Assembly: GCA_964503145.1 (NCBI GenBank)
Contig: CAZCYV010000015.1
Coordinates: 20,378-84,377, forward strand
Source: an uncultured Anaerolinea sp.
GTDB lineage: Bacteria > Chloroflexota > Anaerolineae > Anaerolineales > UBA4823
DNA length: 64,000 nucleotides
Direction of reading: 5' to 3'
Shown piece after piece: positions 40,025-63,552 of the stretch. The stretch's first letter is position 1; every line of letters starts with the position of its first letter. Made by a program: the position numbers and the translations under genes. The notes under the pieces are model-generated. The model saw nothing but the letters and a program-made list of their open reading frames with translations, was not told where the DNA came from and did not search any database.

Positions 40025-40027
40025 AGG

Positions 40028-40100
40028 TGGACCTGAGGGGATTCGAACCCCTGACCTCCTCAGTGCGATTGAGGCGCGCTCCCAACTGCGCTACAGGCCC
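40028..40100 (-). tRNA. tRNA-Ala (anticodon CGC)
   Basis: Reverse complement is GGGCCTG TA GCGC AGTTGGGA GCGC G CCTCA ATCGCAC TGAGG AGGTC AGGGG TTCGAAT CCCCT CAGGTCC A. It forms a cloverleaf with the G3:U70 Ala identity pair. CC (not CCA) follows in the genome. Confidence 0.93.
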
Positions 40101-49936: not shown

Positions 49937-50009
49937 GGGCCCATAGCGCAGTTGGGAGCGCGTCTCAATGGCATTGAGAAGGCCGTGGGTTCGAATCCCA
50001 CTGGGTCCA
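49937..50009 (+). tRNA. tRNA-Ala (anticodon GGC)
   Basis: GGGCCCA TA GCGC AGTTGGGA GCGC G TCTCA ATGGCAT TGAGA AGGCC GTGGG TTCGAAT CCCAC TGGGTCC A. G3:U70 present. No encoded CCA. Confidence 0.93.
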
Positions 50010-50104
50010 CTCGAGCGGTCGTTCGCAGTTGGCGGTTAGCCATCAGCGGCCGGGTGAACCGGTGAAAAGCTGAGTGCTGACCGCTCAATATATTCAAGGC
50101 CACC

Positions 50105-56213: not shown

Positions 56214-57914
56214 CTATTCTTCCTTGACAATCGGCAACTCCAGGTAACTTGGGCGCTCTGAGTCGTGGTACAGGGTTACATGGGCGGTGCGCGCATCCTG
56301 GCCTGATTCGGCAGCGACGACGCCTCCGCTGTTGTAGTTCTTCTGGATATAGATCGAGTTTGGCGAGACGATCAGCAGCCGCAGACGACTGCCTTTGGCC
56401 ACCTGGCGGGAGAAGAAGGTGAAACCGTCGAATTGGTAGCGCTCGATCTCGCCGGGGGTGACCAGCTTTTCTTCCCGCAGCGACTGGCGATAGCGCGCCC
56501 GCAGCATGTCCTGGGTGAGGTGGATGCACGAGCCATCCAGCAGGATTTCGCTAAGGGTGACCTGGAAATCGGTGTCCGGCACATCCAGGGCGATCCAGGC
56601 GACGAACCGGACATAGCCGGTGATTTCGACGTCCTGCTCGAACGGCTCGCTGTGGTACACCAGCCCGTTGCCGAAGAGGTTCAAGGCGTAGCGCTGATCG
56701 GTGAAGCGGTCTTTGATCTCCTGGCGCTCCAATTCGGCTAGGCGGGTGTCCAGCGGATCGTAGATGTAAGCATCTGGCTGGCTTTTGGCAGGCGGCGCGT
56801 CTTGCAGGAAGCCGGAGTGGAAGACGTCATTGGCGTTGCCATGGGCGGAATTGAGGTACAGGCGGCGCGTCTCGTCCGAGATGGCCTCCAGGCTGTCGGC
56901 GTATTTCCACTCTTCCGCCCCGGCCAGGTAGTAGGCCACCCGTTTTTTCAGGAATTCGGGTTTGGGGCCGCCCTGCATCGTCCAGGCGTACCATTCGGCG
57001 TGCAGCTTGTTCAGGTCGAGCAAACAGGCCTCGCCGAACTTCAGCCCGCCGAATTCACGATTGGGAGTGCGCGTCCCGGCGTGATCCCAGGGGCCGATGA
57101 TCAGATAGTGCTGCTCGCGCGCCGGGGAGGCCGAACGCATATGCTGATGGTAGTAATGCATCGCCCCAGGCTGATCGTCGTCGTAGTGCCCGGTGATGGA
57201 CAGGATGGGGATAGCGATGCGGTCGTATTCCTGCGGAGTGAGCGCCATCGTATCCCAATAGGCGTCGGGGGTGGGGTGCTGCAGCCAGGTCTGGAAATGG
57301 GTGGTGGTGTTGCCGACGACCTGATCGAGTTGATTGAAGGGGCGGTGGCTAAGGTACAGTTCGCGGTACTTCTCGATCCAGAAGGACTCCTCGGCGAACA
57401 GATTGGCGTTGCCGGTCACGCCGCTGACCAGCGTCTGCCATTGCATCTCATAGGCGTACAGGATGTTCTTGAAGAAAGGGAAGTCCACCGCGGCATGCGC
57501 CGCGGCTGCGGGGACGATAGTCTTCAGGTGCGGCGGGAACTCTTTGAGCGCCATCCACTGGTCGAAGCCGGCGTAGGAGCCGCCCCACATCGCCACCGAG
57601 CCATCGCACCACGGCTGGGCCGCCAGCCACTCGACGATGTCATGGGCGTCGCGGCCTTCGTTGACGAACGGCTCGAACTTGCCCTGTGAGTTGCCACGCC
57701 CGCGGCAATCCACCAGGGCGAAGGCGAAGCCGTGATTGGCGAAGTAGTAGGCGCGGGCATGGTAGGAATCGGCGATGTAGGGGGTGAGGGTGAAGATGAC
57801 CGGGGTTGGGGCGGCGTCTTTGGGCCTGTAGAGCGTGGCGTTGAGCAGGACGCCGTCGCGCATTGGGATTTTCAGGCCCCAGGTGAAGTCGATGTTTTGG
57901 GAGGGTTCAGACAT
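56214..57914 (-). CDS. CocE/NonD-family (S15, X-Pro dipeptidyl-peptidase-like) hydrolase
   Basis: IPMRDGVLLNATLYRP..., RGRGNSQG, WGGSYAG (GxSxG-type), with a C-terminal beta-sandwich region. Confidence 0.85.
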   Translation of the reverse strand: MSEPSQNIDFTWGLKIPMRDGVLLNATLYRPKDAAPTPVIFTLTPYIADSYHARAYYFANHGFAFALVDCRGRGNSQGKFEPFVNEGRDAHDIVEWLAAQPWCDGSVAMWGGSYAGFDQWMALKEFPPHLKTIVPAAAAHAAVDFPFFKNILYAYEMQWQTLVSGVTGNANLFAEESFWIEKYRELYLSHRPFNQLDQVVGNTTTHFQTWLQHPTPDAYWDTMALTPQEYDRIAIPILSITGHYDDDQPGAMHYYHQHMRSASPAREQHYLIIGPWDHAGTRTPNREFGGLKFGEACLLDLNKLHAEWYAWTMQGGPKPEFLKKRVAYYLAGAEEWKYADSLEAISDETRRLYLNSAHGNANDVFHSGFLQDAPPAKSQPDAYIYDPLDTRLAELERQEIKDRFTDQRYALNLFGNGLVYHSEPFEQDVEITGYVRFVAWIALDVPDTDFQVTLSEILLDGSCIHLTQDMLRARYRQSLREEKLVTPGEIERYQFDGFTFFSRQVAKGSRLRLLIVSPNSIYIQKNYNSGGVVAAESGQDARTAHVTLYHDSERPSYLELPIVKEE

Positions 57915-58137: not shown

Positions 58138-58878
58138 TTAGCGCTTCTTCCTCCCTGCGGCGTAGAACGTAGGCACGAAGAGCACGCGTGCGCCGCTCGC
58201 CCAGGCCTGGGCGTCGCTCTGCCGCAGACGCGCCAGTTCCTCGGGGGGGAGCGCCCCACCCAGGTCGGCCTGCAGCACCTGCCACTCCTGGGCCAGGTCC
58301 TCCGGCGCAGGCGCAGCGCGCCACTGCCCGCCCAGCACGCCGGTCTCGACTTCCTGCAACCCGGCGGCGTGGAACAGGGCGGCCAGGCGGCGGCCGAGGC
58401 GCGTCTCGGCGCCCTGGCGACGCAGGGCGGCCTCTTGCAGCGCGCCGAGCTGGATCAGTTCGTCGGGGTAGTCGATGCGCCCGCCGTAGTCTGGCTCGGC
58501 CAGGGCCAGCAGCCAGCCGCCAGGGCGAAGAATGCGGCGCATCTCAGCCAGGACGCGGGCGGGGTCGACCACCCATAGCAGCAGAAAATGGCAGCAGACG
58601 ATGTCGAAGCTGGCCTCGGCGTAGGGCAGAAAATGGGCGTCGCCCTGGACAAGCGCCGCGGCAGGTGTGTTGCGCTTTGCCTGGAGCAAAAATGCATCCT
58701 CCAGGTCCAGGCCATGCACCTGGCAGCCGCTCTCGGCCAGCGTGGAGAGCACCGCGCCGGTGCCGCAGCCCACCTCGAGCAGGCGCATGCTGGAGGAAAG
58801 CCCGGCGCGCTGCAACAGATAGCGCCGGATTTGCTCCGTCCAGCGCGCCTGCTGGGTGAAGCGGGCGTGCCAGTTCAT
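58138..58878 (-). CDS. Class I SAM-dependent methyltransferase
   Basis: LLEVGCGTGAVLSTLA (motif I), LRPGGWLLAL. 18 nt downstream of the pseudo-rSAM gene. Confidence 0.85.
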   Translation of the reverse strand: MNWHARFTQQARWTEQIRRYLLQRAGLSSSMRLLEVGCGTGAVLSTLAESGCQVHGLDLEDAFLLQAKRNTPAAALVQGDAHFLPYAEASFDIVCCHFLLLWVVDPARVLAEMRRILRPGGWLLALAEPDYGGRIDYPDELIQLGALQEAALRRQGAETRLGRRLAALFHAAGLQEVETGVLGGQWRAAPAPEDLAQEWQVLQADLGGALPPEELARLRQSDAQAWASGARVLFVPTFYAAGRKKR

Positions 58879-58896: not shown

Positions 58897-60045
58897 CTAC
58901 CCTTTTCCCCAAATCTTTTCCCAGGGATCGTGCAGCAGGTTGCCCAACACGCGGGGATCGCCCTGCGTCGGGCGCACATCGCCGTCCGGTTCGACATAGA
59001 GCCAGGCGCGCCCGGCGCCCTCCATCTGGGCGTCGCTGGCCTCCAGCGCCACCGGGTGCAGCGCCGAATAGGGCACCGGCAGGTTCCACACCAGCTCCAT
59101 CTGCAGCAGGGCGGCGCGGTCGCGGGCGGAGGCCAGCGCCTCTGCCAGCGCCGGGTCGGAGGCGCTGAGCGAAATGCGCCGCACGCCCAGCCCTGCCAGG
59201 CGCTCCAGCAGGCCCGCCGCCGCAGAGTGATTCTCCGGCGTCACGGTCAGGTGCACCGCCACCGAAAGGTCTTCCACCATGGCGTTGCCCACCGCCTGCC
59301 AGGACTGCTCATTCTCCGGCTGAAGCACCAGCAGCAGGTGATCCAGCCCGGCTTGCAGCAGGCGGCCGAGGTAAAGTTCGTCCGCCAGGCGCAGGCCGTT
59401 GGTGAGCAGGCCGGTCACCTGTCCCAGGCGCTCGGCGTGAGCGATCAGCTCAGGCAGGTCGTCGCGTAGGGTAGGCTCACCGCCGGTGAAGATGATGTGG
59501 GGCACCCCAGCCGCCCAGGCCTTATCCAGGATCGTCTGCCACTCTGTGGCGTTCAGCTCGCGGGCGACGCGCTCGATGGGGGCCGAATCGGGTGCTTCGT
59601 CATCGGGCAGGCGGTAGGTCAGGGCACAGTCCAGGCGGTAGGGCGCCGAGATTTCGCCGGAAAAGGGCTTTTGGCGCTCGAAATCCAGATAGGTCACCGG
59701 ATCCAGGTCGGGAGTGTTGATCAGGATCTGAATGCGCTCGGCCAGGTCGAGGTAATCCTGGCGGGCCTGCGCCGGGTCAACCTGATAGCGCGCCGCCATC
59801 AGGCGGGCTGCCTCTTCGACCGGGGTGTTGTGGATGAAGTAGTAAGCGTATTCGGCGGCGGTCTGGTTCAGGTGTAGCACGGTGGCGGCGTTGACGATCA
59901 GCACGCCCCCGCCGTGCGCCTCCATGCGCAGGTGCAGGCGGTAGTTACGCGGGTCATCCGGCGGCGACTGATAGTGGTACAGCCCCGCAGGCAGGGGGCG
60001 AATGGGGGTGAACAGGCGACGGAAGGGTTTGAGCAGAGCGGTCAT
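58897..60045 (-). CDS. Degenerate radical-SAM paralog (pseudo-rSAM) with N-terminal PqqD/RRE-like domain
   Basis: ATG at 60045 overlaps the upstream stop as ATGA. It is colinear with the 60042..61406 product (PYRLD.ALTYR, PHI.FTGGEPTLR.DLPELIA.AE, LLTNG). The CX3CX2C position reads LPDDEAPD (59587..59610). The protein ends (...LLHDPWEKIWGKG) before the SPASM Cys block. Confidence 0.75.
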   Translation of the reverse strand: MTALLKPFRRLFTPIRPLPAGLYHYQSPPDDPRNYRLHLRMEAHGGGVLIVNAATVLHLNQTAAEYAYYFIHNTPVEEAARLMAARYQVDPAQARQDYLDLAERIQILINTPDLDPVTYLDFERQKPFSGEISAPYRLDCALTYRLPDDEAPDSAPIERVARELNATEWQTILDKAWAAGVPHIIFTGGEPTLRDDLPELIAHAERLGQVTGLLTNGLRLADELYLGRLLQAGLDHLLLVLQPENEQSWQAVGNAMVEDLSVAVHLTVTPENHSAAAGLLERLAGLGVRRISLSASDPALAEALASARDRAALLQMELVWNLPVPYSALHPVALEASDAQMEGAGRAWLYVEPDGDVRPTQGDPRVLGNLLHDPWEKIWGKG

Positions 60046-61406
60046 ACGGGCCTCGGTTTGCGGTTTGCCTGATGATAGAGGGGGCATCCGCCGCCGCATT
60101 CGGCAAGCAGGGCGCAGGCATGGCATTTGTCCATCACCATCTGACGCTCGCGCAGGCGGATGGCAAGCTCGTGGTTCCAGATCGACTCCCAGGGGTCGGT
60201 CAACAAGTTGCCCAGGGGCTGGTAATAGGACTGGCAGGGCAGCACAGCGCCATCCGGCTCGACGCACATGTTGTATAGCGCCGCGGTGCAGCCCTTGACG
60301 CCCAATTCGAGCGCCATGGGGTCGAAGTTGCAATATTGGGTGGGGGTGTACCAGATCAGGCGCTGATGGTAGGCGTCGGTGGAGGCGCGCGCCAGCTCCA
60401 GCAGTGGGGCCAGCTCCGCCTCGTCCAGGCCGCTATCTACCGTGGCGCCCCTGCCGGAGTAGATCAGCGCGTTCAGGCCGAGCGTAGGCACGCCCAGCTT
60501 GCCCAGGAAATCCAGCGTCTCGGCCAGGGTGGGGGCGTTCCAGCGCAGCATGGTGGTGTTGGTCATCACGTACAGCGGGCTGTCCAGGGCGTTCTTGACG
60601 CCGGCGACGGTTTGCGCCCAGGCGCCGCGCGCGCCCACCATCTGGTCGTGAATTGCCGGATCGTGCGATTCGAGAGTAATCTGCACGTGATCCAGGCCAG
60701 AACGCACCAGCAGGCGCAGGTAATCGGGGTCCTTCAAGCGGCGGCCGTTGGTGTTCAGGCCGGTGATCTGACCTTTGGCTTCGGCATAGGCGATCAATTC
60801 GGGCAGGTCGGCGCGCAGGGTAGGCTCGCCGCCGGTAAAGACGATATGGGGGATGCCGATTTCCCAGGCGCGGTCGATGATCGCCTTCCAGCGGGCGGTG
60901 TCCAGTTCGGCGAAATCGCGCGGGCGGGCGTTGTAGCAGTGGGCGCAGTCGTTGTTGCAGCGGTAGGTGAGCGCCAGGTCGAGGCGGTAAGGGGCGGAGG
61001 GGCGGGCGGAGAAGGGGGCAATAACCTCCAGGTCCAGGTCGTGCAGGGCGCAGGCGCCGTCTGGACGGGCGAGTTCGGCAATCTGCGTCTGGATTTGCGC
61101 ATAGTCATTGAGCACCTGCTGGCGGGAGACGCGGTAACGACGGCGGATGACCTGCGCCGCCTGAGCTGCGGGGGTCTCGTCCAGCGCCAGGCGGGCCATC
61201 AGCGCCGCGGTGGGATTCAGGTGCATCACCCGGCTGGCGTTGACCAATAACTGCCCGCTGCCATCAGCGTCGATGCGCAGGTGCAGGCGGGCGCGCTCTC
61301 CCGGCGCCTGGCGCTCATAGTGGTGAAGCTGGTGGAAAGCGGGGCGTTCCGCCTCTTCGGGGGCTTTCAGCCATCTGGCGCTCAGCTTCTGCAGGAAGTT
61401 GGTCAT
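60042..61406 (-). CDS. Radical SAM/SPASM enzyme with N-terminal PqqD/RRE-like peptide-recognition domain
   Basis: CNNDCAHC (60936..60959) = CX3CX2C. FTGGEPTL. The C-terminus has ...C..PDGAVLPC... and CHACALLAECGGGC (60084..60125) = CX2CX5CX3C. Residues ~38-112 (LHLRIDADGSGQLLVNASRVMHLNPTAALMARLALDETPAAQAAQVIRRRYRVSRQQVLNDYAQIQTQIAEL) look like PqqD. Confidence 0.88.
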   Translation of the reverse strand: MTNFLQKLSARWLKAPEEAERPAFHQLHHYERQAPGERARLHLRIDADGSGQLLVNASRVMHLNPTAALMARLALDETPAAQAAQVIRRRYRVSRQQVLNDYAQIQTQIAELARPDGACALHDLDLEVIAPFSARPSAPYRLDLALTYRCNNDCAHCYNARPRDFAELDTARWKAIIDRAWEIGIPHIVFTGGEPTLRADLPELIAYAEAKGQITGLNTNGRRLKDPDYLRLLVRSGLDHVQITLESHDPAIHDQMVGARGAWAQTVAGVKNALDSPLYVMTNTTMLRWNAPTLAETLDFLGKLGVPTLGLNALIYSGRGATVDSGLDEAELAPLLELARASTDAYHQRLIWYTPTQYCNFDPMALELGVKGCTAALYNMCVEPDGAVLPCQSYYQPLGNLLTDPWESIWNHELAIRLRERQMVMDKCHACALLAECGGGCPLYHQANRKPRPV

Positions 61407-61460: not shown

Positions 61461-63131
61461 TCAACGTCCACCTCCGGCGCAGGCGCAGGCGCAGCCCGCA
61501 CAGGCGCAGGCACAGGCGCAACCGCCCCCGCTGCGGCCGCCGCCAGAGCGGCTGGGCGGCGGGAGGGGGTTGGTGCGGTTGGTGATTGAGCTGGTGAACT
61601 CGCTCAGGTTGCCCACCACGCTGCTGGAGAAGTTCTGCACTCCGCCCACCACCGAAGCGGCGAAGGCCGAGCCGGGCAGGGAGGGCAGGGAGAAGCTCCC
61701 ACCGCCGGCGCTGGGGCCGCTGGTCGAGGGGGCGCTGATGGTGGAAGGCCGCGGCCCAGCCGAGGGCCGGAAGGTCGGGTCGTAGCGCCCCCACCAGGTG
61801 GGGACGAAGACCGGGCCGGTAAACACCCGCCGTGTGCGCTCGTCGTAATCCTTGTCCAGCATGGTCCATTCCATGTACTTGTCGAAGGTTTCGCTCTTGA
61901 CCTCGGGGGTTTGGGCGGCCTCGACTTGCGCCCAGGCGCGCTCCATGATGTCTTTGTAATAGGCGATGGTCTCTTTGCGGCTGAAGCCTTTCATCTTGGC
62001 CGAAAGGCTCTTGACCAGGTCCACCATCATCTCCTGCAGTTCCTTCTTGCGCCCGGCGCCTTTGGCCTTGAAGGCGTTCAGGAACGCCTTCTCGTAATCA
62101 TACAGTCCCTCGGGCAGCGGGCTGGCGACTTCGATTTCGAGGGGATCTTGCTTGACCACCCGCGCGGCGCCTTTCTTGATCACCCCGAACAAGATCATGG
62201 TGAGCACTTTATCCAGCGGCTGTTCCATCAGCACCGCCGCCTCCACCGCGGTCAGGCCGCGCTTGATGCCCAGGCCTTCGATGGCGATCTTGGGCGGCAG
62301 GTATTGCAGCTTGCGGCGGTTGTTGGAGTAGATGGAAAGAGCGCTGCTGCCGCCGATCAGACCGATCACCCCGAAGCAGCACAGGAAGCCGAACAGGTCA
62401 TCCGGATCGATGCCGGTGGTTTCGGCAAAGCTGGGCGCGACGACTGTGCCTGCAGGCACATATTGGGCGGGGAAGGAGGCGCCGAATTCGTACTGGCGGT
62501 AGCCTTCGGCCTGGGGATTGTTCCAGGTGTAGGTGATGCGTCCCTCGCCGTCCAGGCCGGTCATCGGCTCGGCCGGGAAACCGGGCGGCGCGCTGTGCCA
62601 GCGCGGCTCTTCGGGCTTGACCCCTGGCGGCAGATGGAAGGTGACGGTCATGTTGGTCGTGCCTTGCATGAACTGCTTGCCGAACCAGGTGGGCGAGAAG
62701 ACGAAGCTGGCGTAGTTGGGATCTTTGGAGTCGGTGCGCAGCCAGGAGCCGGCGTTGGGCACGAAGACGAACACTCGGCCAGTCTGGCCGGGGCGGATGG
62801 CCTGCGCGCCCATGACGATGGCAAAGCCGCTGCCCGAGCCCTGATATTCGGAGCGCGAGACGGGGACTTTGACCCCGTTCGCCTCTGCGATGATGCCGCT
62901 GGTCTGGAAGCTGCTGTTGGGCATGCCGACGTCGATGTAGTCGATCGGCGAGGCGCCCGGGGCGTTGGTGAAGACGAAGTTGTACAGGATCGAGGCGCTG
63001 CCGTCTTCGTTGACGAAGACATCTACCCGCAGTTCATCCAGCGAGAAGAGGTAGTTCTGCGCCAGGGCGCTGACCGGGATCAGCGCCAGGAGCAGGATGA
63101 GCACCCCACAGGCCCAACGTGCGCGTTTCAT
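61461..63131 (-). CDS. DUF2207-like membrane protein ending in a (Cys-Ala)n tail
   Basis: ATG at 63131 (GGAGG 5 nt upstream). Signal peptide MKRARWACGVLILLLALIPVSALA. DUF2207-like ectodomain (YLFSLDELRVDVFVNEDGSASILYNFVFTN). One TM segment (FGFLCCFGVIGLIGGSSALSIY) followed by NNRRK. GLTAVEAAVLM motif. Gly/Ser/Pro-rich C-terminal region ending GGGCACACACAGCACACAGGGR. Confidence 0.8.
   Translation of the reverse strand: MKRARWACGVLILLLALIPVSALAQNYLFSLDELRVDVFVNEDGSASILYNFVFTNAPGASPIDYIDVGMPNSSFQTSGIIAEANGVKVPVSRSEYQGSGSGFAIVMGAQAIRPGQTGRVFVFVPNAGSWLRTDSKDPNYASFVFSPTWFGKQFMQGTTNMTVTFHLPPGVKPEEPRWHSAPPGFPAEPMTGLDGEGRITYTWNNPQAEGYRQYEFGASFPAQYVPAGTVVAPSFAETTGIDPDDLFGFLCCFGVIGLIGGSSALSIYSNNRRKLQYLPPKIAIEGLGIKRGLTAVEAAVLMEQPLDKVLTMILFGVIKKGAARVVKQDPLEIEVASPLPEGLYDYEKAFLNAFKAKGAGRKKELQEMMVDLVKSLSAKMKGFSRKETIAYYKDIMERAWAQVEAAQTPEVKSETFDKYMEWTMLDKDYDERTRRVFTGPVFVPTWWGRYDPTFRPSAGPRPSTISAPSTSGPSAGGGSFSLPSLPGSAFAASVVGGVQNFSSSVVGNLSEFTSSITNRTNPLPPPSRSGGGRSGGGCACACACAGCACACAGGGR
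61476..61520 (-). repeat. Imperfect (TGY-GCC)n hexanucleotide repeat encoding CACACACAGCACACA
   Basis: Read codon by codon on the minus strand: TGC GCC TGT GCC TGC GCC TGT GCG GGC TGC GCC TGC GCC TGC GCC. Confidence 0.95.
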
Positions 63132-63198
63132 TTTTGCCTCCATCTTTTTTGTTTTGAGCGGCGAATGACCCGATGAAGCTCGGTTTAAAACCACCGTT

Positions 63199-63552
63199 TT
63201 ACCATTTGGGCTCTTCTTTGAGCTGATAGCTGGTGTGACAGTAAGGGCAGGTGACCACCGGCGCGCCGGCGACCATTTGGACGTTTTCGGGCTTGAGCAC
63301 CCCACCGCAGGATTCGCATTTGAAGGTGTCCATGCTTACATTCGATGGCAAATCGACCTTGACAGTGACGTTGGTGACGCCGGCGGCAGGCTTTTGCCGG
63401 CCGGCCAGCCAGATCAGCCCCAGCCCGATGCCCGCGCTGATCACCCCGACGATGATCCAACCGTCGGGCGCGCTGGGATCGAACGCGCCCCAGATGAACA
63501 GCACGCCGAAAAAGATCAGGATGGCGGCGATAATGTAAAGGATAATTTTCAT
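63199..63552 (-). CDS. Small membrane protein (2 TM) with C-terminal CxxC...CxxC zinc-ribbon
   Basis: MKIILYIIAAILIFFGVLFIWG and WIIVGVISAGIGLGLIWLAG helices. KCESCGG...TCPYCHTSY. Confidence 0.65.
   Translation of the reverse strand: MKIILYIIAAILIFFGVLFIWGAFDPSAPDGWIIVGVISAGIGLGLIWLAGRQKPAAGVTNVTVKVDLPSNVSMDTFKCESCGGVLKPENVQMVAGAPVVTCPYCHTSYQLKEEPKW

Follow-up and report, generated by a model that had tools for sequence, protein, structure and literature searches.

Why should a membrane protein end in a peptide in which every second residue is a cysteine? The question is raised by a 64,000-nucleotide stretch of DNA (hereafter, the window) from an uncultured Anaerolinea sp., contig CAZCYV010000015.1, in which a gene on the minus strand (61461..63143) terminates in GGGCACACACAGCACACAGGGR followed by the stop codon. 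We conclude that this Cys-Ala tail belongs to a system that is real, very strongly conserved and, as far as our literature search shows, apparently undescribed; the search found no paper on the motif or on the gene cassette around it. On balance, we think it probable that the tail, which is predicted to lie in the cytoplasm, is a protein-borne core peptide resembling those of peptides made by the ribosome and modified after translation (RiPPs), and that it is the substrate of the radical S-adenosylmethionine (SAM) enzyme encoded next to it.

Translation of the minus strand at 61461-61700 gives NPLPPPSRSGGGRSGGGCACACACAGCACACAGGGR and then a stop, a sequence that can also be rendered as SITNRTNPLPPPSRSGGGRSGGGCACACACAGCACACAGGGR. 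The core tail, CACACACA-G-CACACA-GGGR or (CA)4G(CA)3GGGR, is 19 residues long and contains seven cysteines (61464..61520, with the stop codon at 61461..61463). There is one Cys for every two residues, in a block of four and a block of three separated by a single Gly, and the tract is flanked by GGG at the extreme C terminus. The initial annotation had described just this arrangement, an alternating Cys-Ala tract of seven cysteines, bracketed by Gly triplets and led into by a Pro/Ser/Gly-rich stretch, and the translation confirms it. Comparison of homologues divides off the lead-in as a Pro-rich break and a Gly/Ser/Arg linker (LPPPSRSGGGRSGGG; 61521..61565), whose length and sequence differ from one homologue to another while the tail itself is constant. 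Ahead of the linker, family conservation marks out an amphipathic segment, LPG-xxFAxxxVxxxxxFSxxxVxxxxxFTxxVTxxTNP (residues 488-526; 61566..61682). In an AlphaFold 2 (AF2) model of the protein, the core tail is disordered, with a predicted local distance difference test score (pLDDT) of 32-47.

All of the 120 best homologues (57-100% identity), which come mostly from Anaerolineae/Chloroflexota metagenomes, carry a tail ending in CACACAGCACACAGGGR. The unbiased evidence for conservation is an exhaustive HMMER search of 1.84 billion representatives, rather than the pattern-seeded genome scan described below. This search returned 875 representative clusters, defined at 50% identity, at E<=1e-3 (309 at E<=1e-30), so that the family comprises at least 875 clusters. 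Among the 150 of these clusters that were listed, 111 have the tail, down to about 33% identity; the remaining 39 are fragments or frameshifted calls, with the single exception of a paralogue, P0239. The DNA beneath the peptide is far less constrained: at 53 loci with an identical 17-mer, CACACAGCACACAGGGR, we found 50 distinct DNA versions, which between them use both Cys codons, all four Ala codons, all four Gly codons and six Arg codons. Because so many DNA versions give the same peptide, selection acts on the protein, with all 17 residues under purifying selection and Ala and Gly held as strictly as Cys. A 17-residue tail identical across phyla ranks among the most strictly conserved short peptides that can be found. 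The stop codon lies at the same place in every homologue and is therefore not a sequencing artefact. The initial annotation had envisaged that orthologues might lack the tract, or that the true stop might lie upstream and be hidden by a sequencing error; when both were examined, the homologues proved to retain the tract and to share the stop.

When the window and 86 loci were translated in all six frames, three or more Cys-small units in a row turned up in these tails and, two chance three-unit matches aside, nowhere else; the fetched loci contain no stand-alone peptide or unrelated protein with the tail motif. On a wider scale, GTDB genomes have more than 600 stretches whose translation contains CACACAGG or CACACAC[AV]. 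We confirmed 81 of them as relatives of the tail protein; the others could be chance occurrences, simple repeats, distant relatives or other tail carriers.

The carrier is an intact open reading frame on the minus strand. Its likely start is the ATG at 63143, giving 560 amino acids; an identical database protein, P0001, starts at 63131 (556 amino acids). In the AF2 model (mean pLDDT 85.9), a signal peptide precedes a beta-sandwich ectodomain (residues 33-225), after which come a single long transmembrane helix, a cytoplasmic winged-helix and helical domain (299-440) and the disordered tail. Hydropathy likewise gives only a signal peptide and a single transmembrane segment (about 249-273), with DPDD before it and NNRRK after it, and region 483-510 is not transmembrane (KD19 maximum 0.98). 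Because of this hydropathy profile and the positive-inside rule, the last 285 or so residues, including the tail, are predicted to be cytoplasmic, as in a type-I-like membrane protein. The amphipathic segment is modeled as two helices, 491-510 and 513-524 (pLDDT 83-90). Its pattern is kept across the family, with P526 conserved in at least 90%, and it is a candidate leader-like recognition sequence for the peptide-binding domain of the partner enzyme. Some relatives share only the half of the protein made up of the transmembrane, cytoplasmic and tail regions, and carry other ectodomains or an extra N-terminal extension of about 210 residues.

Database searches placed the carrier only remotely. 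It has no match above threshold in Pfam, NCBIfam or PADLOC, none to a metallothionein family in Pfam or NCBIfam, and a search of PDB sequences with the family profile found no match. Foldseek on the AF2 model returned generic beta-sandwiches only (ribophorin I/OST1 and the N-domain of M1 aminopeptidase, TM-score about 0.23), a likeness too generic to serve as a functional lead, and we rejected it as such. The initial annotation had called the protein DUF2207-like. A distant, subthreshold tie to DUF2207_C and TIGR04222 does exist, but membership by hidden Markov model cut-off does not follow from it: the window protein has no match to DUF2207 (PF09972, PF20990) at E<=10, short of the gathering score, and reaches 11.7 bits against TIGR04222 (E=0.15, residues 297-383), below the 43-bit cut-off. 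Among 45 family members, nine match TIGR04222 weakly (best E 4.8e-6) and seven match DUF2207_C (PF20990) weakly (best E 1.2e-4).

The gene 54 nt downstream of the tail gene (60042..61406, minus strand) encodes a 454-residue radical SAM/SPASM enzyme with an N-terminal PqqD-like RiPP recognition element (RRE). Pfam assigns it Radical_SAM (2.8e-27) and SPASM (PF13186, 5e-9) domains, and residues 55-105 score 24.2 bits against PqqD (PF05402; cut-off 23.4). The PqqD-like domain is also present in precomputed annotation of many homologues, for which the NCBI name is "PqqD family peptide modification chaperone". The three cysteines of the CxxxCxxC cluster motif, C150, C154 and C157, are kept in 70 of 70 sequences, and the SPASM cysteines C359, C373, C391, C428, C431, C437 and C441 in 68-70 of the 70. 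The enzyme thus has what defines a RiPP-type maturase of the radical SAM/SPASM class: the CxxxCxxC motif, a SPASM domain of about seven cysteines and a PqqD-like RRE. Its nearest PDB sequences are PqqE, which is the best, and SkfB, and the fold of its AF2 model matches SkfB, SuiB, PqqE and CteB over 400-450 aligned columns; the anaerobic sulfatase-maturing enzyme (anSME) and the epimerase EpeE are also among the fold matches. SkfB, SuiB, PqqE and CteB all mature peptides, and two of them, SuiB and CteB, share the layout of RRE, radical SAM and SPASM domains. None of the listed NCBIfam families (NirJ2, PqqE, AhbC/D, MftC, anSME and the SCIFF maturase) reached its cut-off. Because the equivalog scores all fall far short (PqqE 121 versus 381, MftC 97 versus 265, NirJ2 130 versus 500), the enzyme is best classed as a distinct family.

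Three further proteins accompany this pair, all encoded on the minus strand. Upstream of the tail gene lies the gene for a small membrane protein of 117 amino acids (63199..63552), with two transmembrane helices and a cytoplasmic CxxC...CxxC zinc ribbon. Its C terminus, EEPKW-COOH, is invariant in 69 aligned bacterial and archaeal sequences (the window and L007-L086), and C79, C82, C102, C105, E113, P115, K116 and W117 are its invariant residues. EEPKW is a second strictly conserved C-terminal motif of the cassette, and may be a docking peptide. Next after the enzyme comes a radical-SAM-like paralogue of 374 amino acids (58897..60021), which has no Fe-S motif, a single cysteine and a weakly PqqD-like N terminus. 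CxxxCxxC is missing from every Chloroflexota orthologue of this paralogue, each of which has 1-5 cysteines (11 in one stop-to-stop reading frame). The second paralogue in planctomycete-type cassettes (L049, L051, L056, L059, L070 and L079) is a different protein, which also lacks CxxxCxxC and retains the SPASM motif CxxCx5Cx3C. Noncatalytic radical SAM partners, of two different kinds, therefore seem to be a recurring feature. The last gene (58138..58878) encodes a class I SAM-dependent methyltransferase of 246 amino acids (Methyltransf_11, 7.1e-26), whose best NCBIfam match, to the DVU_1556 family, reaches 87 bits where the cut-off is 155.

These genes, for the zinc-ribbon membrane protein, the tail protein, the RRE-bearing enzyme, usually a cluster-less paralogue, and the methyltransferase, constitute a cassette, and the same five recur in homologue contigs with differing flanks. 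We compared 80 loci from a scan of GTDB species genomes, which was seeded on the tail pattern and is hence biased toward tail-bearers. The radical SAM gene adjoins the tail gene in 73 of the 80, and in 47 of the 51 that extend at least 3.5 kb to either side; the zinc-ribbon protein is present at 65, bacterial and archaeal, while the methyltransferase, sometimes displaced by inserted genes, and a second radical-SAM-like gene each occur at 40. The radical SAM proteins at the loci have E-values of 1e-100 to 1e-208 and match more strongly than the tail protein does. When loci were seeded from the radical SAM side instead, the tail protein was directly upstream in all of them, with two in tandem in one. 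The bacterial loci are from Anaerolineae, Acidobacteriota, Aminicenantes, Hydrogenedentes, Sabulitectum, Planctomycetota, Polyangiaceae and Nitrospirales, and the archaeal ones from Methanomassiliicoccales, Thermoplasmatota, Bathyarchaeia, Thermoproteota, Nanoarchaeia, and Heimdall- and Hodarchaeota. A cultured member of the Anaerolineae, Ornatilinea apprima P3M-1, has the whole cassette.

Across this range the tails obey a simple grammar: three or four Cys-aliphatic units per block, one spacer residue between blocks, and a closure of GGG plus one or two residues. The spacer is mostly G or S, with A, H or Q as the first spacer of archaeal forms; Ala is exchanged only for Val or Ile, as in archaeal forms; and seven cysteines is the commonest number (164 of 230 tails). 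Most Chloroflexota, together with Aminicenantes and Sabulitectum, have (CA)3-5 G (CA)3 GGGR. Planctomycete-type cassettes, in which the gene order is zinc-ribbon protein, radical SAM enzyme, second radical-SAM-like protein, tail protein and methyltransferase, have (CA)2-3 G (CA)4 GGGR. An uninterrupted (CA)5-6 GGGR is found in Methanomassiliicoccales and some Heimdallarchaeota, and a ten-Cys form, C[VI]CACA-x-CACACACV-S-CACACA-GGGxx, in Bathyarchaeia and Thermoproteota.

These tail types map onto the clades of a neighbor-joining tree of the radical SAM proteins, even where taxonomy does not. Enzyme, tail and gene order are all of the planctomycete type at L049 and L051, although these loci come from Chloroflexi; likewise L083, a Nitrospirales contig, falls within the Bathyarchaeia radical SAM clade and its tail is of the Bathyarchaeia type. 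Because tail type follows enzyme clade, also across taxa, the comparison indicates that enzyme and tail are inherited and exchanged as a single module. A planctomycete-type tail was seen in another Chloroflexota locus, L075. The mismatch between cassette and taxonomy at L083, L049, L051 and L075 means either that the module was transferred horizontally as a whole or that contigs were mis-binned.

The number of tail proteins in a cassette also varies. Tandem copies, each with its own Cys-Ala tail, were seen in L051 (6950-8737 and 8788-10737) and in L089 (1518-3155 and 3236-4957). P0239 (L091, 5650-6654) is a truncated paralogue without the ectodomain and with an acidic, Cys-free tail of the GGHD/GGFD type, and it lies directly upstream of a canonical tail-protein member.

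What does the enzyme do with the tail? What can be read directly is the tail and its invariance, the predicted topology, the enzyme motifs and the gene linkage. We favor a substrate relationship because an RRE-bearing radical SAM/SPASM enzyme adjoins the tail gene at nearly all loci and the tail variants track its clades; because the tail, with all its 17 residues under purifying selection, persists across domains and in homologues of only about 33% identity, and the enzyme has the full architecture of a RiPP maturase; because a cytoplasmic tail would be where radical SAM enzymes act; and because there is a published analogue, the Cys-bearing tails of TIGR04222 proteins, proposed as substrates of a different class of enzyme. 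The suggestion in the initial annotation that the tail is a modification substrate has accordingly become the best-supported reading, by virtue of the adjacent enzyme and the co-varying tails, although this is a comparative argument rather than proof. It amounts to radical SAM/SPASM peptide maturation of a kind already known, with a membrane protein's tail as the target.

We suggest that maturation would proceed as follows. The RRE of the enzyme would bind the amphipathic segment (FTxxVTxxTNP), and the cluster-less paralogue of Chloroflexota would probably be a noncatalytic binding partner, perhaps also engaging this segment. The flexible Gly/Ser linker would provide reach, feeding the small-residue Cys-Ala tract into the active site. 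There the enzyme would modify the tract, most likely by installing intramolecular thioethers of the sactionine or ranthionine type from Cys sulfur to carbon atoms of neighboring aliphatic residues. Such cross-links are the most likely chemistry, by analogy with the closest types of enzyme and given that Cys is the residue rich in targets, although we are less confident of them than of the substrate relationship itself. If the tract folds into a hairpin, we infer that the one-residue spacer would shift the Cys/Ala register and place Cys opposite Ala. The methyltransferase may then add further methylation, with S- and O-methylation both possible. Because the cassette has no protease or exporter, the product would not be exported but would stay tethered to the membrane protein, forming a rigid appendage that is rich in sulfur and probably active toward metals or in redox chemistry.

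Several observations weigh against this scheme. At L041, L067 and L084 there is no radical SAM gene within 6-7 kb of the tail gene, and at L020 the tail gene is accompanied by the pseudo-paralogue only. A search for an alternative maturase beside the tail genes of L041, L067 and L084 found only unrelated genes, for an M32 peptidase, a GT87/PMT-like protein, GMP synthase, a PAS protein and a MatE transporter. Because the conserved cassette contains no protease and no exporter or transporter, it is not a classical RiPP cluster; such a cluster would have a short precursor with a cleavable leader and a protease and/or exporter, and here the carrier is a membrane protein of 556-560 amino acids. The specific reaction cannot be read from homology, because the enzyme scores so far below every equivalog cut-off. 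The enzyme-substrate relation, the chemistry and the physiological role are all what we infer from comparison, and the chemistry is a guess by analogy. Finally, the alternation of Cys with aliphatic residues would equally fit an amphipathic, metal-binding beta-strand that carries no covalent modification.

This last possibility is the main rival, and we consider it unlikely. The tail would then bind metal or Fe-S without being modified, through a C-X-C thiolate array that resembles metallothioneins and sits on an amphipathic strand, and it would sense or buffer metal or carry a cluster; the radical SAM enzyme would have another substrate, or the tail would be the route by which it receives or delivers a cluster or electrons. 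Thiolate clusters are classically ligated by C-X-C repeats, and blocks of four and three, adding up to the seven cysteines of those 164 tails, could ligate a cluster; but the X positions vary freely in metallothioneins, and in this tail they stay invariant although synonymous change is saturated. The restriction of Ala replacements to Val and Ile, in archaeal forms, is what one hydrophobic face of a beta-strand would show. SUF, NifU and cysteine desulfurase genes beside the cassette in several Anaerolineae point the same way, although that neighborhood is not conserved and is missing from the window, L004 and L005. The partner enzyme also has an RRE, a peptide-binding domain typical of maturases, and beyond this enzyme co-conservation extends only to the zinc-ribbon protein and the methyltransferase.

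Somewhat less probable again is that the enzyme acts on the tail by some other chemistry: epimerization of alternate residues, as by PoyD and YydG, which would yield a peptide alternating between L and D forms; conversion of Cys to formylglycine or dehydroalanine, in the manner of anSME; or release of a small cofactor, such as pyrroloquinoline quinone (PQQ) or mycofactocin. A strict period of two residues would fit an epimerase working on alternate positions, and anSME and EpeE are both among the fold matches, but sequence and fold matches do not tell these reaction types apart, and the sulfatase motif C-x-[PA]-x-R is absent. As for a released cofactor, an invariant core is typical of the precursors PqqA and MftA; against this, the cassette has no release protease, and a 560-residue membrane carrier would be an odd precursor for a diffusible cofactor.

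We regard it as very improbable that the protein is an ordinary TIGR04222 member whose periplasmic tail has its Cys converted to thiooxazole by a DUF692 enzyme of the multinuclear nonheme iron-dependent oxidative (MNIO) type. TIGR04222 tails are proposed MNIO substrates (PMC12452194), and the weak similarity to TIGR04222 and DUF2207_C would agree with such an origin, but the TIGR04222 score of 11.7 bits is far from the cut-off of 43 and the tail is predicted to be cytoplasmic. Nor did any inspected locus yield an MNIO gene: none (DUF692/MbnB_TglH_ChrH) was found in the window cassette, in L001-L005 and L087-L090, or next to those tail genes without a radical SAM neighbor. The last alternative, that the tract is functionless low complexity, a DNA repeat or an annotation or frameshift artefact, has a negligible chance of being right: GC-rich DNA can yield Ala/Cys/Gly-rich frames and some database homologues do have frameshifted ends (LRLCLCL...), but we ruled it out on the same peptide being encoded by 50 DNA sequences and conserved in both bacteria and archaea, where it is invariably in frame and C-terminal.

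The flanks of the cassette vary. In several Anaerolineae (L001-L003, 13086-17677; L087 and L088, 8392-11395) it is followed by genes for a Rieske protein, NifU, cysteine desulfurase and SufBD, and in the same loci a DsbA/thioredoxin-like gene stands ahead of it; L004, L005 and the window do not have this SUF neighborhood. In the window, the cassette is followed by a gene for a CocE/NonD hydrolase (56214..57914). The only Rfam or ARAGORN matches in the window are two ordinary tRNA-Ala genes (40026..40100, minus strand, and 49937..50010, plus strand; anticodons CGC and GGC).

If the tail is indeed a substrate of the radical SAM enzyme, the cassette would represent a large and wholly uncharacterized system of post-translational modification, comprising at least 875 clusters at 50% identity and ranging over Chloroflexota, Planctomycetota, Acidobacteriota, Bathyarchaeia, Methanomassiliicoccales and Heimdallarchaeota. 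It would extend the radical SAM/SPASM chemistry of RiPPs to the maturation of membrane proteins in situ, and provide a radical SAM counterpart to the proposed pairing of MNIO enzymes with TIGR04222 proteins. A bolder idea, conceivable although we lean against it, is that the enzyme turns the tract into an unprecedented protein-tethered, sulfur-rich structure, for instance a thioether ladder or a defined metal-thiolate or Fe-S "wire". This would be the working cofactor of a transmembrane device, made up of ectodomain, transmembrane helix, cytoplasmic domain and zinc-ribbon partner, that is common to anaerobic bacteria and archaea, including Asgard lineages. In practical terms, the Cys-Ala repeat is a simple and tractable substrate with which to find the reaction, and Ornatilinea apprima P3M-1, as a cultured host, allows direct study.

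How does this cassette compare with known systems? DUF2207 proteins (PF09972/PF20990) have a similar plan, with a signal peptide, beta-sandwich ectodomain, transmembrane helix, cytoplasmic region and Gly-rich tail; the window protein differs from them in having no Pfam match, a single transmembrane helix after the ectodomain, a Cys-Ala tail and linkage to a radical SAM gene. Metallothioneins and C-X-C peptides share the repeated Cys-X-Cys, the high density of Cys and the disordered segment. They are small and soluble, however, whereas the tract described here is tethered to the membrane, has an invariant Ala as X and is linked to a radical SAM maturase.

The membrane proteins of TIGR04222 come closer. 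A bioinformatic study of 2025 proposed that their Ser/Gly-rich, Cys-bearing C-terminal tails are protein substrates of MNIO (DUF692) enzymes (PMC12452194). In both cases a Cys-containing, low-complexity tail on a membrane protein is linked to the gene for a RiPP-type enzyme, and there is remote similarity in the domain next to the membrane. The enzyme in our cassette, in contrast, is of the radical SAM/SPASM type with an RRE; the tail is a fixed, periodic Cys-Ala sequence, invariant across phyla, rather than a variable mixture of Ser, Gly and Cys; it is predicted to be cytoplasmic rather than periplasmic; and the system occurs chiefly in anaerobic Chloroflexota, Planctomycetota and archaea instead of in Actinomycetota.

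With the sactipeptide and ranthipeptide systems (AlbA, SkfB, CteB/SCIFF and PapB), the cassette shares an enzyme with an RRE, a CxxxCxxC motif and a seven-Cys SPASM domain, as well as a Cys-rich substrate encoded immediately upstream, and SkfB and CteB are among the closest structures. The putative substrate here is instead the tail of a 560-residue membrane protein, without a leader protease or exporter, and its core is invariant where theirs is hypervariable. Thioethers would be expected in it by analogy, and it has additional partners in the cluster-less paralogue, the zinc-ribbon membrane protein and the methyltransferase. A last group consists of QhpD, which acts on the gamma subunit of quinohemoprotein amine dehydrogenase (QHNDH), PqqE with PqqD, and MftC with MftB. 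The target here differs from theirs in being a dipeptide repeat, in a cassette that has no dehydrogenase or other cofactor-using partner. Nevertheless, these systems likewise combine a highly conserved target with a SPASM enzyme and a PqqD-type RRE, and QhpD offers a parallel for what we propose, since it installs multiple Cys thioethers in a protein that retains them.

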